Assembly: GCA_019338205.1 (NCBI GenBank)
Contig: GCA_019338205.1_4761.1
DNA: 64,000 bases
Direction: 5' to 3' (one strand)
Source of the DNA: a phage
Positions 4,638-63,539 of the stretch are shown here, piece by piece; the first letter of the stretch is position 1; each line of letters opens with the position of its first letter. A model generated the notes under the pieces. That model had not been told where the DNA came from, did no database searches, and saw only the letters and a program-made list of their open reading frames with translations. The translations under genes and the position numbers were made by a program.

Positions 4638-4669
4638 AGCCGATCCGAAAGGGTCGGCTTTTTCGTTTT
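4638..4669 (+). terminator. rho-independent terminator
   Basis: AGCCGATCCGAAAGGGTCGGCT hairpin followed by TTTTTCGTTTT directly after the nrdD stop. Confidence 0.7.
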
Positions 4670-4703: not shown

Positions 4704-4732
4704 GCTCACATCGAAAACAACGAGAGGACAAC

Positions 4733-5823: not shown

Positions 5824-5852
5824 TTGACGGGGATCGCGAGATCCCCTATACT
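5824..5852 (+). promoter_or_regulatory. PeSL-like early promoter
   Basis: TTGACG 5824-5829, palindrome GGGGATC-GCGA-GATCCCC in the spacer, TATACT 5847-5852. Confidence 0.55.
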
Positions 5853-9303: not shown

Positions 9304-9591
9304 ATGTTAGTACACAATGCAATCGCACACATGGTTTATTCTCGATTTGGGCGCATGGAAGAAATCAATATTACCGACGCAGATTTAGATCTGATGCAAG
9401 TCGAAGGCCAGACATATCTGAAAAATAACGGCGTGAATATCGGTAAAGCGCGTGTGCGTGAATTGTTAGTTGAATATATTCTCTCTGAATTTGGCATTAG
9501 TGCTTTCGGTGTGAAAGAGATTGCACCTAAGCGCGAAATTTCTGATAAAATGATCAAGAAATGCCAGAAAGCACGACGTAAGGGTTTCTAA
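9304..9591 (+). CDS. hypothetical protein
   Basis: ATG 9304 after GAGGAATATATT; track ORF 9286..9591 trimmed. Confidence 0.55.
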   Translation: MLVHNAIAHMVYSRFGRMEEINITDADLDLMQVEGQTYLKNNGVNIGKARVRELLVEYILSEFGISAFGVKEIAPKREISDKMIKKCQKARRKGF

Positions 9592-13256: not shown

Positions 13257-13285
13257 TTGACGCGGGGAGAAATCCCCGTTATACT
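13257..13285 (+). promoter_or_regulatory. PeSL-like early promoter
   Basis: TTGACG 13257-13262, palindrome CGGGGA-GAAA-TCCCCG in the spacer, TATACT about 13280-13285. Confidence 0.55.
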
Positions 13286-13310
13286 CTCTAAAAATTGATG
13301 GGAGGTTATT

Positions 13311-17383: not shown

Positions 17384-18070
17384 ATGAAACTGACTAAAGA
17401 AACCATTGCTACCCTGAAAAACTTTTCCGCTATTAACCCAGGTATCATCCTGAAAAAAGGAAACGTCCTGATCACCAAAAACATGACAAACGTTGTATAT
17501 GGTGAAGCGACTCTGAATCAAGAACTGGAACACGAAATTGGGATCTATGATCTTAACTCTTTCTTGGGTATTCTGAATCTGGTAGGCGATGAAGCAGATA
17601 TTACGGTTGATGACCGCACCGGAAACATTCGTGTGTCTAATGATCGTCTGAAAATTAATTATCCTGGTGCTAGTGCTGCCGCCATCGTATCACCGAAAGG
17701 CCGAGTTACTCCACCTGCAAGCGATGTAGATTACGAACTGAGCAACGACGATCTGAAACAGCTTATGAAAATGAGCAATCAGCTTAAAGTGGATCGCCTT
17801 GAATTTCTTCCGATTGATGGTCGTCTGATGATCAAAGGCTGGGAAGAGATTGACAAAAATAATCCGAATGAGATGTTTTGTCTTGATATGGGCGAATATA
17901 CCGGAACCGCAGACTTCCATTTCTTTATTCGTAAAGATAACATGAAACTGGTTGCTACTGACTTCGGCGATTACAAACTTAGCTTCACTCGCCGTAAGGC
18001 TGTATGGCTGGCAAGTGAAACCGTATCTTATATGATCGCGTGTGACCTTGACTCCAGCTACACCGACTAA
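17384..18070 (+). CDS. 45: sliding clamp gp45
   Basis: MKLTKETIATLKNFSAINPGIILK...IYDLNSFLGIL closely matches remembered T4 gp45; 228 aa. Confidence 0.93.
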   Translation: MKLTKETIATLKNFSAINPGIILKKGNVLITKNMTNVVYGEATLNQELEHEIGIYDLNSFLGILNLVGDEADITVDDRTGNIRVSNDRLKINYPGASAAAIVSPKGRVTPPASDVDYELSNDDLKQLMKMSNQLKVDRLEFLPIDGRLMIKGWEEIDKNNPNEMFCLDMGEYTGTADFHFFIRKDNMKLVATDFGDYKLSFTRRKAVWLASETVSYMIACDLDSSYTD

Positions 18071-27554: not shown

Positions 27555-28583
27555 ATGATTTACTACGCAGATTATGAAATAGCGGAAAAAGCCATATACG
27601 GCGAACGAAATTTTAAACGGTTGCATACTAGCTCATTTACGCTGGTCTGTAGTTGTCCGATCTGCGGTGACTCAAAGAAAAATCATACTCAAGCGCGATT
27701 CCGTATCTATACCTATAAGGATAGTTTGCGTTGCGGCTGTTTCAACTGTAACTACAATCAGCCATTAGGTGAATTTCTCAAACAGTATAAGCCGGACCTA
27801 TTCAGGGAATGGCTTATGGAACGACGGAAGGAACAAGGCGACCACAAGAACACCACGTTCAAGCCACTGAAAAAGGTAGAAAAGCCGGAGATTAAGAAAG
27901 TGCAAACATTGCCTTTCTGCGAGAGATTAGATACTCTTCCGGCTAATCATCCTATAATAAAGTATGTCAGTGATCGCTGTATTCCTCACGATAAATGGGA
28001 TCTTCTGTATTTCACGAGAGAATGGCAAAAGGTAGCAAATCACATTAAGGCTGATACTTTCAAGAATCCACAACCTGAACCGCGTTTAGTGATTCCTATC
28101 TTTAACCGCGAGAACAAGATAGAATCCATTCAGGGGCGAGCATTGAGAAAGGATTACGGAAAGACCAAATATATGACGATTAAAACTCATGAGTTAGCGA
28201 GTAAGGTCTATGGTCTTGAACGCGCCGATCCGAGTAAACCAGTGTATTTCTTAGAAGGTCCGATCGATTCATTGTTTATTGATAACGGGTGTGCAATTAC
28301 TGGCGGTACTTTGGGATTAGATGAAATCCCTTTCCCAGACCAGCGAGTGTTTGTACTTGATGCGGAACCACGGTCTGCCGATACAATGCACCGACTGGAA
28401 AAGTTTATCAATGCAGGGGAAAAGATTGTATTGTGGGACCGTTGCCCGTGGCATTCTAAAGACGTTAACGCCATGATTCAGGACGAGGGCGCTACACGCG
28501 ACCAGATCATGGAATATATCAAAGAGAACACCGTACAAGGTCTGATGGCTAAAATGCGGTTTATGAAATATTGTAAATTTTAA
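27555..28583 (+). CDS. 61: DNA primase gp61
   Basis: 342 aa; N-terminal zinc ribbon CPICGDS...CGCFNC; TOPRIM-like FLEGPIDSLF; same length as T4 gp61. Confidence 0.9.
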   Translation: MIYYADYEIAEKAIYGERNFKRLHTSSFTLVCSCPICGDSKKNHTQARFRIYTYKDSLRCGCFNCNYNQPLGEFLKQYKPDLFREWLMERRKEQGDHKNTTFKPLKKVEKPEIKKVQTLPFCERLDTLPANHPIIKYVSDRCIPHDKWDLLYFTREWQKVANHIKADTFKNPQPEPRLVIPIFNRENKIESIQGRALRKDYGKTKYMTIKTHELASKVYGLERADPSKPVYFLEGPIDSLFIDNGCAITGGTLGLDEIPFPDQRVFVLDAEPRSADTMHRLEKFINAGEKIVLWDRCPWHSKDVNAMIQDEGATRDQIMEYIKENTVQGLMAKMRFMKYCKF

Positions 28584-28597
28584 TTAATGAGGTGAAT

Positions 28598-29116
28598 ATG
28601 TCAGAATTTAATTCTTGTGCTGGTCTGGTTAACGAAAAAGATATTAACGCGGCTATCGCCGCATATCATCACGCGATTGCAGAAGGTAAAGATCCGTTTC
28701 AGGTGATGCTAGAAATGCAAACTGGTTTGCAGGTTGCATTATCCGAAAAATTTGATTGGGTCCCAAATCCAACTAAGCTAGAGACTTGCGGTGAAATGCT
28801 GGATTGGATGCAACGGATGGATGACGCTATCGCAGACGAAACACGAGAGCTTTACACATCGCTGGGTGGAATGTCCAATGGTAAAGATGCAAGTGCAATC
28901 TGGAAAATGTGGAAAAAGAACCACGGAGAAGCGCGAGCGCGTAAATTCTCTGAACTGTCACCGGAAGATCAGCTTGAAGTGAAATTTGAATTTGTGGACG
29001 CGATCCACTTCATTCTGTCAAAGATGATCCCGCTGGGTATTGACGCTCAAGAACTCTTTATTCTGTACTATCTGAAAAATGCTGAAAACTTCGCCCGTCA
29101 AGAACGCGGCTACTAA
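28598..29116 (+). CDS. all-alpha NTP pyrophosphatase (MazG / gp56 dCTPase-dUTPase-like)
   Basis: about 172 aa; acidic motifs ETCGEM...ADETRELY; position downstream of gp61 matches T4 gene 56; family assignment tentative. Confidence 0.5.
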   Translation: MSEFNSCAGLVNEKDINAAIAAYHHAIAEGKDPFQVMLEMQTGLQVALSEKFDWVPNPTKLETCGEMLDWMQRMDDAIADETRELYTSLGGMSNGKDASAIWKMWKKNHGEARARKFSELSPEDQLEVKFEFVDAIHFILSKMIPLGIDAQELFILYYLKNAENFARQERGY

Positions 29117-29123
29117 AAATTAG

Positions 29124-29152
29124 TTGACACTACTCTATAATGGTTTTATTAT
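29124..29152 (+). promoter_or_regulatory. sigma70-type promoter
   Basis: TTGACA 29124-29129, 17-nt spacer, TATTAT 29147-29152. Confidence 0.45.
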
Positions 29153-29153
29153 G

Positions 29154-29185
29154 CCTCCCGTCGAAAGATTGGAGGCTTTTTTATT
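29154..29185 (+). promoter_or_regulatory. leader hairpin that sequesters the RBS, terminator-like
   Basis: GCCTCC...GGAGGC stem whose 3' arm is the Shine-Dalgarno, followed by TTTTTTATT and then ATG 29186. Confidence 0.45.
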
Positions 29186-29689
29186 ATGCAATTTACACCA
29201 GAAGAACTTAACATCATTGATGAAGTGATGAACTCTAAAGAAAATATCGATATGTCGATCCTTAATGGATTGATCGAAAAGACTGAGCGGTTAGTGCATC
29301 ATGAAGCCTTGTATCGCGGTGTGAGCAAAAGAGAAGGCCGTAAGCTGGATACCTTAATTGTTGGTGATTCTTTCGTTGTAGAGCGTCCTATGAGCTTTAC
29401 GCCACTGCAATCAACAGCAGAGGACTTTGCAACCGATGTTTATGCAACAGGAAAGATTATTGCAATAAAACCTACCAAGCCTTGCATGAATTATTACGAA
29501 CATGCTATTGACCGAGTGGTGTCTAAAGAGTATGACAATCCGACTACTCGACTGTCTTTGTATGCTATGTTGGCAGATGAGCGCGAGTGCATATACAAGA
29601 CAGGGACGACCATGATCCTTGATGAGATCGAGGAAGTTTACGCGTGTAATGGCGATCTGATAGAGATTTACAAATTTTCTTTAATTTAA
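29186..29689 (+). CDS. hypothetical protein, possible ADP-ribosyltransferase (ModA/ModB position)
   Basis: 167 aa; YRG ... STA ... EIEE spaced like R-S-E ART motifs; syntenic with T4 modA/modB; weak. Confidence 0.55.
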   Translation: MQFTPEELNIIDEVMNSKENIDMSILNGLIEKTERLVHHEALYRGVSKREGRKLDTLIVGDSFVVERPMSFTPLQSTAEDFATDVYATGKIIAIKPTKPCMNYYEHAIDRVVSKEYDNPTTRLSLYAMLADERECIYKTGTTMILDEIEEVYACNGDLIEIYKFSLI

Positions 29690-29692
29690 GTG

Positions 29693-29721
29693 TTGACAGC
29701 ACAAACCAGATAGACAATAAT
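29693..29721 (+). promoter_or_regulatory. sigma70-type early promoter with conserved ATAATACAC.CATACCAA leader
   Basis: TTGACA 29693-29698, -10 around 29715-29721; leader almost identical to the one at 43039-43075. Confidence 0.5.
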
Positions 29722-29750
29722 ACACCCATACCAACTAAGGAGAATCAATT

Positions 29751-30506
29751 ATGAAACTGTTTGCTTTTAAATCTAACGAAGAATTGGCGCTGGTTGTTTT
29801 CCGTCTGAACTCTATCATGGCTGGCGCTTCACGTCGCAACAAAGACTTCTCTATGAGCTTAGTCACTGTGCGTAACATTTACCGTCAGACTCATTGCGCA
29901 TATTCAGGTGAAGCGTTCGGTGAAGGTGATGATGGACTCTCCTTAGAGCGCATTGATTGCAATCTAGGATATGTTGATGGCAATGTAATTCCGGTTAAAC
30001 TGAAATACAATTCTTTCCGTGGCAATCACACTATCGAATCTCTTAAAGAGATCCAGGAACTAGGAACTAACGGTAAACTTTCTGATGATGAAATTGCCCT
30101 ACGTGCGAAGTACATCGAGTGGATCGAACTTAACGAGAATCGCATCAAAAATCAGGAAATAGCAATCGAAGAAAAGAAGTTAGCAATCGAGCGCCACAAA
30201 AAGCACAACGAACCGGAGAAAGCAGAGGCAGCCGAGCGAGCGATTAAAAATACTCTCTTCCGTATGGAAGAACGTTATCAGAAAATTACAGATCTCAAGC
30301 AAGCCCTTAGCGAAATCAACAAGAAAGAAGAAAAACTTAAGGCTATTGCAAACAATACCGAAGTCGTGCTAAAATATACCAGCGTTTTGATTGAATCTCT
30401 TTCTAAGTATGAGAACTTAACGCCAGCACAAAAAGAACGCGTGAAATACGGGCTTCCGATTGATGCGTCGTGGATTGAATTGATGAAAGCGAAGGTAGGT
30501 TTATAA
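29751..30506 (+). CDS. hypothetical protein with degenerate HNH-like N-terminal region and coiled-coil C-terminus (position of T4 srd)
   Basis: 251 aa; CAYSGEAF...LERIDCNLGYVDGNVIPV...YNSFRG resembles an HNH motif lacking the catalytic His; AAGGAGAATCAATT leader. Confidence 0.6.
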   Translation: MKLFAFKSNEELALVVFRLNSIMAGASRRNKDFSMSLVTVRNIYRQTHCAYSGEAFGEGDDGLSLERIDCNLGYVDGNVIPVKLKYNSFRGNHTIESLKEIQELGTNGKLSDDEIALRAKYIEWIELNENRIKNQEIAIEEKKLAIERHKKHNEPEKAEAAERAIKNTLFRMEERYQKITDLKQALSEINKKEEKLKAIANNTEVVLKYTSVLIESLSKYENLTPAQKERVKYGLPIDASWIELMKAKVGL

Positions 30507-35582: not shown

Positions 35583-35630
35583 TTGACATACAAGGGAGAT
35601 TCTCTATAATGGGAGTCTCCCTTTTCTTTT
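35583..35630 (+). promoter_or_regulatory. PeSL-like early promoter with terminator-like T-run
   Basis: TTGACA 35583-35588, TATAAT 35605-35610 inside the loop of GGGAGA...TCTCCC, followed by TTTTCTTTT. Confidence 0.55.
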
Positions 35631-35951: not shown

Positions 35952-35980
35952 TTGACACTGGACCGGGGATATATCATAAT
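35952..35980 (+). promoter_or_regulatory. PeSL-like early promoter
   Basis: TTGACA 35952-35957, CATAAT 35975-35980 inside the GGGGA...TCCCC inverted repeat. Confidence 0.55.
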
Positions 35981-36010
35981 GTCCCCATCGAAAACAAAAG
36001 GTTGACTTAT

Positions 36011-43801: not shown

Positions 43802-43830
43802 TTGACAGGGGATCGGCGATCCCCTATACT
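43802..43830 (+). promoter_or_regulatory. PeSL-like early promoter
   Basis: TTGACA 43802-43807, palindrome GGGGATC-GGC-GATCCCC in the spacer, TATACT 43825-43830. Confidence 0.55.
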
Positions 43831-43861
43831 AAACTCATCAAGACAACGAAGGAGAATCAAA

Positions 43862-44024: not shown

Positions 44025-44053
44025 TTGACACCGGATTAAGGGAGTAGTAAGAT
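44025..44053 (+). promoter_or_regulatory. PeSL-like early promoter
   Basis: TTGACA 44025-44030, TAAGAT 44048-44053, GGGAGTA/TACTCCC inverted repeat. Confidence 0.55.
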
Positions 44054-44087
44054 ACTCCCATCAAGACAAAACACTGAGGAATATATT

Positions 44088-63430: not shown

Positions 63431-63458
63431 AGCCTCCCTCCGGGGAGGCTTTTTTATT
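63431..63458 (+). terminator. rho-independent terminator after gene 32
   Basis: AGCCTCCC-TCCG-GGGAGGCT hairpin followed by TTTTTTATT. Confidence 0.75.
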
Positions 63459-63509: not shown

Positions 63510-63539
63510 GCACACATCGAAACAATGGAGGATAAAAAT

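Follow-up and report, generated by a model that had tools for sequence, protein, structure and literature searches.

Gene 56 and modB are separated by a gap of 69 nt with a hairpin that lies between a promoter and the ATG of modB, and whose 3' arm holds the Shine-Dalgarno (SD) sequence of that gene. The question raised by this locus is on which RNA the hairpin acts: on the transcript of modB itself, as a preliminary description had proposed when it read the structure as a leader that attenuates or translationally controls a host-modifying enzyme, or on the transcripts that arrive from the genes located upstream. Our main reading, to which we give a probability of about 0.6, is that the gap is a compact and overlapping promoter-terminator cassette of the PeSL kind, which would work by a three-step mechanism.

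Genomic context of the modB locus

The window, that is, the whole stretch of 64,000 nucleotides that was analysed, belongs to a Krischvirus and shares 99% identity with phage RB49; over the segment 28592-30820, Escherichia phage RB49 and about 55 further Krischvirus genomes match it at 99% identity. Positions of RB49 were converted to positions of the window as 29186 + (9420 - RB49 position), and the features of the locus are collected in Table 1. On the + strand, genes 41, dc2, dc1, 61.1, two small ORFs, 61, 56, modB, srd, ORF012 and dda follow one another, an order that matches the T4 order 56 ... modB/modA, srd, dda.1, dda. The placement of the ORF between gene 56 and srd/dda is the T4 modA/modB position, as had been recognised in the preliminary description. 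The two maps differ in that the T4 genes between 56 and modB are absent here, and in that there is one mod gene where T4 has two.

Gene 56, whose TAA stop occupies 29114-29116 and for which the ORF list also allows an earlier GTG start at 28592, is the final gene of the upstream early transcription unit. Beyond modB, a custom hairpin scan revealed no terminator ahead of srd, and transcripts of modB should therefore run on into srd, ORF012 and dda. According to this, modB should head a new unit composed of modB, srd, ORF012 and dda, in which srd has an additional promoter of its own.

Table 1. Features of the gene 56-modB region (positions in the window)
Feature	Position	Strand	Basis or remark
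gene 56 (dCTPase/dUTPase)	28598..29116	+	RB49 annotation mapped; phrog_173 E=5e-37; Pfam dUTPase_2
A/T-rich stretch TAAAAATTAG	29114..29123	+	sequence; directly upstream of -35
sigma-70-type early promoter of modB	29124..29152	+	11/12 consensus; = RB49 Pe:9496
stem-loop GCCUCC-c-GUC-GAAA-GAU-u-GGAGGC	29153..29176	+	= RB49 TransTerm terminator "modB<--56"
predicted transcription start (+/-1 nt)	29159..29159	+	7th base after -10; promoter geometry
modB Shine-Dalgarno GGAGG	29171..29175	+	in hairpin 3' arm, 10 nt before ATG 29186
T6 run (terminator U-tract, also SD-to-AUG spacer)	29177..29182	+	sequence; 5 to 7 T in relatives
modB, predicted 167-aa ADP-ribosyltransferase	29186..29689	+	100% identity to RB49 ModB; phrog_832 E=1e-20
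early promoter before srd (TTGACA, N17, AATAAT)	29693..29721	+	= RB49 Pe:8927

The product of modB

Judged by homology and predicted fold, the ORF downstream of the hairpin is an ADP-ribosyltransferase (ART) of the T4 ModA/ModB family, an identity that is already known, since the gene has been annotated as modB from the deposit of the RB49 genome onwards. The PHROGs family that it matches is that of the RNA polymerase ADP-ribosylase; tblastn to T4-type ModA/ModB genes gave about 29% identity, with E values of 1e-9 to 1e-10, and the domain PF26816 (Mod_ADP_RT) is recorded on near-identical database homologs. The local Pfam copy returned only an insignificant DUF5507 match, and neither NCBIfam nor a sequence search of the PDB gave any match to the ORF. 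Since these searches produced nothing significant, the ART assignment rests on PHROGs, tblastn, the alignment and the fold.

When the ORF was aligned with T4 ModA and ModB plus eight more members of the family, R44, G45 and S70 proved invariant, and E132 and E134 were found in 9/10 aligned sequences, the tenth being truncated. The codons of the triad are located at 29315-29317 (R44), 29393-29395 (S70), 29579-29581 (E132) and 29585-29587 (E134), with S70 in the motif MSFT and E132-x-E134 in DERECI. R44-G45 aligns with R73-G74 of T4 ModB, the residues that were mutated in the inactive enzyme, where R73 is catalytically important and the motif is R-S-EXE (PMC10468400). Among the motifs to which the preliminary description had pointed, YRG holds the conserved R44, whereas STA (76-78) and EIEE (147-150) are not part of the triad according to the alignment.

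The AlphaFold (AF2) model, built with a 10-sequence alignment, reached a mean pLDDT of 89.4 and a pTM of 0.81, and when it was compared with the PDB by Foldseek, the best 50 matches were all R-S-E ARTs (probability 1.00, TM about 0.5-0.6). Certhrax, CDTa, BECa, VIP2, C3, iota toxin, ExoT and HopU1 were among them, and E was about 1e-6 to 1e-7 for the C3-like and binary toxins. Structure prediction, which had been suggested as a check of the ART fold, did find it, and the ART-like character proposed earlier for the 167-aa ORF agrees with the phrog_832 match, the RB49 annotation and these structural matches.

Besides the neighbourhood described above, the protein shares with its T4 counterparts the conserved R-S-ExE residues and an identity across the ART domain of 23% to ModA and 27% to ModB, values that do not discriminate target specificity; T4 also has an early promoter of its own directly upstream. 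The ModB of the window differs in lacking their roughly 30-residue N-terminal extension. As for the T4 specificities, ModA acts on RNA polymerase alpha, and ModB on S1, EF-Tu and trigger factor, and in RNAylation.

The hairpin as a probable terminator of the upstream unit

The gap reads TAA-AAATTAG-TTGACA-(17 nt)-TATTAT-GCCTCC-c-GTC-GAAA-GAT-t-GGAGGC-TTTTTT-ATT-ATG. All the elements listed in the preliminary description, namely the GCCTCC...GGAGGC hairpin, the SD in its 3' arm, the T-run and the ATG at 29186, are present in it; only the coordinate given for the start, 29154, has to be moved, as it falls one base inside the stem, which begins at 29153. The 5' arm (29153-29158) and the 3' arm (29171-29176) form an outer stem of 6 bp, 5 of them G-C pairs, and a GAAA tetraloop is closed by an inner 3-bp stem, GUC/GAU. 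Folding gave a dG of -13.8 kcal/mol for the 24-nt hairpin, and when the surrounding 111 nt were folded it dominated the MFE as well as the centroid structure.

The structure has the sequence features of an intrinsic terminator, that is, a GC-rich stem-loop followed by a U-tract, situated on the coding strand 3' of a stop codon, in this case 37 nt past that of gene 56. Nolan 2006 had predicted at RB49 9430-9453 a TransTerm terminator, "modB<--56", with a score of 100, and these positions map exactly onto 29153-29176 of the window. In the GenBank records MN709127 and MN882349 the hairpin is annotated as "terminator", with the modB RBS feature nested inside it. The built-in terminator scan missed it, given that its loop rule disallows an inner stem with a mismatch, and a custom scan with a shuffle control was used in its place: on the + strand of the window, 4 hairpins have dG <= -13 and a run of 5 or more T behind them, whereas 20 dinucleotide shuffles contain 0.4 on average. 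The terminator-like nature that had been noticed before is thus backed by the TransTerm score, by two GenBank annotations and by the excess over shuffled sequences, and the hairpin most likely serves as intrinsic terminator for the transcription unit ...61-56 that lies upstream. No 3'-end data were found for the gene 56-modB gap, and a search of the literature for Krischvirus transcriptomes came back empty.

The promoter of modB and its predicted start

The early promoter of modB is made up of a -35 TTGACA (29124-29129), a 17-nt spacer and a -10 TATTAT (29147-29152). A UP-like A-rich region at the position of the A/T-rich stretch has been described for the early promoters of RB49 (PMC1524935) and for PeSLs (PMC2839356). 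In additional file 3 of Nolan 2006, the early promoter Pe:9496 was predicted at RB49 9446-9496, which corresponds to 29110-29160 of the window, so that the published promoter and the published terminator (29153-29176) overlap by 8 nt. With the last base of the -10 at 29152 and the first base of the 5' arm at 29153, there are 0 nt between the two.

In sigma-70 promoters, transcription starts about 7 nt past the -10, which here points to 29159, an unpaired base between the outer and the inner stems. The published model leads to the same base: in the numbering of Nolan 2006, with T at -7, A at -11, G at -33 and the start as nucleotide 0, the start is 29159, and TCC occupies positions -3 to -1. 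Of the remaining 17 intergenic early promoters in the window, 12 have an A as the seventh base after the -10, usually within C-A-T-C, and their positions 4-6 are C-rich, as they are in modB. At modB itself position 7 is a C and not the consensus A, and in the relatives L003 and L004 the base equivalent to 29159 is an A. Since the start predicted from promoter geometry and from the published model lies inside the hairpin, the mRNA that modB makes from its own promoter should lack the 5' arm.

This result bears directly on the proposal that the hairpin, placed in the leader of modB, is an attenuator or translational operator that restrains a toxic host-modifying enzyme. It is true that the hairpin, which includes the SD, is placed after promoter-like hexamers and before the ATG, and that a single -10 would put the whole hairpin in the RNA, namely a perfect TATAAT (29136-29141) with a start expected near 29148 and a cost of SD opening of 12.4 kcal/mol; moreover, at least one promoter of the window, at 18048, has a stem-loop wholly downstream of its predicted start. 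However, the -35 that would serve this TATAAT (CTAAAA, at 17 nt) matches at only 3/6 positions, and the hexamer reads AAACAA in L004, the most divergent relative, where the hairpin and TTGACA-N17-TATGAT persist. A transcript carrying the full hairpin and the U-tract would mostly terminate after about 30 nt, neither the MFE nor the centroid fold contains an antiterminator, and no leader peptide or known riboswitch was recognised; a scan of the whole window with Rfam at the gathering thresholds gave 0 matches. With 0 nt between the -10 and the stem, neither a leader peptide nor an antiterminator fits. Considering also that the published RB49 promoter model puts the start inside the hairpin, we regard control through modB's own leader as quite unlikely, and the attenuation that had been proposed earlier is probably wrong: the -10 ends at 29152 and a start at 29159 excludes the 5' arm.

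Predicted masking of the Shine-Dalgarno sequence

The GGAGG of the 3' arm is the sole SD-like sequence before the modB ATG. In the read-through context its predicted pairing probability is 1.00, the second highest among 94 starts that were called heuristically; the one ranked above it is an ATG called by mistake within a different stem-loop, so that the modB SD is the highest among the correctly called starts. The outer stem cannot form in an RNA that starts at 29158 or later, and the predicted cost of opening the SD amounts to 11.4 kcal/mol in the read-through RNA versus 3.2 kcal/mol in an RNA that starts at 29159. The latter cost, modest as it is, is retained by the RNA from 29159 and counts against a full exposure of the SD. 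The spacing between SD and ATG, which is set by the U-tract, is 9-11 nt, as compared with 8 nt in the typical GAGG-ATTATATT-ATG sites of this phage, and this longer distance suggests that the terminator and SD functions were accommodated together.

A more economical interpretation is that the hairpin serves only to terminate the gene 56 message and to stabilise its 3' end, and that the overlap with the SD reflects compression, with no translational consequence. The features of the structure are canonical for a terminator, it was predicted as such in RB49, and the window has another terminator, at 63432-63449, with the same GCCTCC...GGAGGC-T6-ATT arms and no start codon near, from which it follows that an arm containing GGAGG need not be an SD. 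Furthermore, if termination is efficient, little read-through RNA would be left to repress. Against this, GGAGG is here the annotated RBS and has no competitor before the ATG, and the spacing from it to the ATG exceeds the 8 nt that are typical of the phage. We consider a pure terminator somewhat unlikely, and it departs from the promoter-terminator cassette solely in the third step, the masking of the SD.

Two further considerations concern the overlap. Efficient termination would make read-through rare, so that masking of the SD would add little; and SD and arm may share bases only as a side effect of placing a G-rich arm beside a start codon.

Relationship to the PeSL class

PeSLs were described by Arbiol et al. 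2010 (PMC2839356) as strong sigma-70-like promoters combined with stem-loops that terminate or attenuate upstream transcription; one such stem-loop cut lacZ expression as much as rrnB T1 did. Their stem-loop can occupy five possible positions relative to the promoter, among them downstream of the -10, and PeSLs recombine and form mini-circles (PMC2839356). The stem type G(n)-loop-C(n) is that of RB49 and phi1 (Comeau et al. 2014, PMC4122927) and is called "frequent" in PMC2839356, and therefore we read it as a frequent property of PeSLs and not as a strict criterion.

The modB gap resembles these elements in several respects. It comes from the same phage genus (RB49/phi1), its promoter is near-consensus (TTGACA-N17-TATTAT versus TTGACA-N17-TATAAT), it has the A/T-rich TAAAAATTAG, a stable stem-loop after the -10, and the SD and ATG at its 3' end, and modB shows allele exchange in L003. 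It differs in that the stem has its C-rich arm 5' and its G-rich arm 3', which departs from G(n)-loop-C(n), in that a true U-tract follows the stem, and in that the SD is the 3' arm itself, whereas the published figures of PeSLs show a separate SD. In addition, modB is a known family in a conserved block, while PeSLs precede an ORFan in a hyperplastic region. In RB49 the authors of PMC2839356 counted 51 PeSLs; their main text does not mention modB, and the GenBank record of phi1 carries no PeSL features. By the criteria described, except for the polarity of the stem, the gene 56-modB gap fits the published PeSL class.

Other elements of this kind are found in the window: GGGAGT...ACTCCC spans the -10 at 27, 938, 2173 and 44025, the spacer contains GGGGATC...GATCCCC at 5824 and 43802, and further early promoters with inverted repeats are located at 13257, 35583 and 35952. 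The terminators at 4639, 42977 and 63432 consist of a GC-rich hairpin with a GNRA-type or small loop and T5-6, and are accompanied by a TTGACA-N16/17 promoter, an SD and an ATG. In these three cases the order is terminator, promoter and SD within about 100-120 nt; modB differs from them, as the order is promoter and then terminator/SD within 69 nt, the two overlapping.

Conservation of the cassette in relatives

Phage, IMG/VR and metagenome collections yielded only five distinct versions of the cassette, and most relatives are too similar to be informative. Among Krischvirus genomes it is invariant except for the length of the T-run, from 5 to 7. The promoter is kept at the same spacing in L003, L007 and L004, and the hairpin is kept in relatives in which the identity of the ModB protein is only 63-75%. 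In L007 (ModB 75% identical) the mismatch base is altered. L004 (ModB 63% identical) presents a double substitution from U-A to C-G, which results in a GCCCCC/GGGGGC stem, and maintains the -35, the 17-nt spacing, a -10 TATGAT and the T-run. This compensatory change is suggestive only, as it affects one pair in one of five sequences and is equalled in 103/500 shuffles, which is not statistically significant.

At the nucleotide level, the intergenic region is 98.6% identical to the window in L003 versus 73% for modB, and 93% in L007 versus 73.5%. The flanks and the two intergenic regions of L003 share 95-99% identity with the window, and the divergence, which starts at about 29199-29242 and stops at 29680, is confined to modB between the two near-identical intergenic regions. 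In L007 the intergenic regions (93-95%) are likewise better conserved than the genes. As a separate case, the insertion of an HNH endonuclease gene in phage G37-3 lies immediately before the -35 and leaves the unit from -35 to ATG intact.

Such mosaics could be taken to mean that the cassette is chiefly a module for recombination at the DNA level, in which PeSL-mediated modular shuffling exchanges modB alleles and the RNA structure is secondary. The pattern of L003, the better conservation of the intergenic regions in L007, the insertion site in G37-3 and the recombination demonstrated for PeSLs all go in this direction. Nevertheless, this explanation leaves unexplained the compensatory change in the stem, the U-tract and the fact that the -10 and the 5' arm adjoin without a gap, and a role in recombination is compatible with a transcriptional one, being additional to it rather than an alternative. 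We therefore judge it very improbable that recombination is the chief function of the cassette.

Comparison with T4 and RB69

In T4, the SD or AUG of genes e, soc, 49 and I-TevI is sequestered in long early transcripts and is free in those from a proximal promoter (PMC3014915). The modB locus is similar in that its SD is predicted to be paired in RNA initiated upstream. By promoter geometry and the published model, the proximal promoter of modB would start within the structure, so that its RNA would lack the 5' part and could be translated. The differences are that the proximal promoters of these T4 genes are late (gp55) and provide temporal control, whereas that of modB is an early sigma-70 promoter, as is the upstream one, and that the structure at modB doubles as an intrinsic terminator. 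No late promoter TATAAATA was found in the gene 56-modB gap.

The same design was looked for in T4 and RB69 and discarded: the modB promoter of T4 has no hairpin, and in RB69 the terminator is upstream of the promoter. In both phages there is no hairpin over the modB SD.

Proposed mechanism and significance

In the promoter-terminator cassette that we favour, the first step would concern the upstream early unit, which would start from RB49 Pe:12110 (about 26500 in the window) and run through dc1, 61.1, 61 and 56. A polymerase coming from upstream would transcribe both arms, and the hairpin with its U-tract would end most transcripts at about 29177-29185. In the second step, a polymerase from the modB promoter would start at about 29159, after the 5' arm, so the outer stem could not form; the RNA from modB's own promoter would escape termination and its GGAGG would be largely unpaired. 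In the third step, those upstream transcripts that read through would have the modB SD locked in the hairpin and would be poorly translated, a logic established for the T4 genes e, soc, 49 and I-TevI. As a net effect, synthesis of ModB would depend almost entirely on its own early promoter and would be insulated from the upstream unit of replication genes.

The terminator and the promoter were each predicted in 2006 for RB49, and the composite PeSL class was described in 2010 in the same genus, so these components are already known. For the modB locus, the precise way in which the elements are nested, the start falling between the two arms and the SD lying within the 3' arm, seems not to have been made explicit before, and no explicit description of the dual-use arrangement exists for modB or for any PeSL. 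The cassette varies known themes only slightly; the exact overlap may merit one sentence in the annotation of Krischvirus genomes, and beyond tidy annotation it matters little. We propose only tentatively the full dual use, in which one hairpin both terminates transcription and masks the SD, the start lies between its arms and ModB is thereby strictly tied to the firing of its own early promoter of the UP-element type, with a self-limiting pulse of the enzyme if it is ModA-like.

This arrangement would be a compact design principle with a possible use in synthetic biology, and a simple case of transcript-selective translation. For the phage, the 69-nt cassette should insulate ModB from upstream transcription, both transcriptionally and translationally; and if the Mod protein of RB49 acts on RNA polymerase alpha as T4 ModA does, its own promoter would be shut off and its synthesis would take the form of a self-limiting pulse.

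Early promoters and PeSL cassettes

The nine early promoters with inverted repeats listed in the table are promoter-early stem-loop (PeSL) cassettes of the RB49/phi1 class. In these sites the repeat is either GGGAGT...ACTCCC, lying across the -10 element, or GGGGATC...GATCCCC, occupying the spacer, and in most of the cassettes the 3' arm ends at -1 from the predicted start. A count of promoter-like matches (TTGACA-N16-18-TAnnnT, at least 10/12 positions) over both strands of the whole window gave 60 for the + strand, many of them located inside coding sequence, and 6 for the - strand.

Coordinates of the promoter, hairpin and insertion features
Feature	Location	Details
Early promoter + inverted repeat	27-63	
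Early promoter + inverted repeat	938-972	
Early promoter + inverted repeat	2173-2206	
Early promoter + inverted repeat	5824-5846	
Early promoter + inverted repeat	13257-13289	
Early promoter + inverted repeat	35583-35623	
Early promoter + inverted repeat	35952-35986	
Early promoter + inverted repeat	43802-43835	
Early promoter + inverted repeat	44025-44059	
Promoter + downstream stem-loop	18048-18136	TTGACT-N17-TATAAT
Stem-loop	18083-18102	GGGGAGT-GTAAAT-ACTCCCC; dG -12.1, then GTTTT
Second terminator	63432-63458	GCCTCCCTCCGGGGAGGC-TTTTTTATT
HNH endonuclease gene insertion, gene 56/modB gap	L019:515-1444	phage vB_EcoM_G37-3 (MK327941); opposite strand

At the promoter at 18048, the stem-loop lies wholly 3' of the predicted start, and the promoter's own transcript should carry this hairpin, in contrast to the situation at modB. 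The second terminator, downstream of which lie a separate promoter (63482) and Shine-Dalgarno sequence, has in common with the modB hairpin a 5' GCCTCCC and a 3' GGAGGCTTTTTTATT; the two structures may be a related module or the product of convergence.

The predicted 5' start of several PeSL transcripts (4704-4712, 35981-35990 and 63510-63518) is ATCGAAAAC or ATCGAAAC. The inner stem and loop of the modB hairpin, CGTCGAAAGA (29159-29168), is similar to this conserved start with a one-base shift, a likeness which hints that the modB cassette was derived from the standard PeSL template.

The modB locus and its relatives

The Krischvirus Mod protein (29186-29689, 167 aa) is devoid of the N-terminal segment of about 30 residues present in the T4-type ModA and ModB (200-207 aa), and its identity, 23% to ModA versus 27% to ModB, cannot decide between the two assignments. 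Upstream, the start of gene 56 is ambiguous (28592-28600): ORF calling places it at the GTG at 28592, and the RB49 annotation at the ATG at 28598.

In phage vB_EcoM_G37-3, homology to the window restarts after the HNH insertion exactly at the TTGACA -35 element (29124), and the A/T-rich stretch 5' of the modB promoter is replaced. Another relative (L003:1-1672, compared with 28492-30163) is a mosaic: modB is 73% identical, versus 95-99% for the genes on either side and the two intergenic regions, and the divergence is limited to approximately 29242-29680. In this mosaic it looks as if the modB allele lying between the two promoter-bearing intergenic regions was exchanged.
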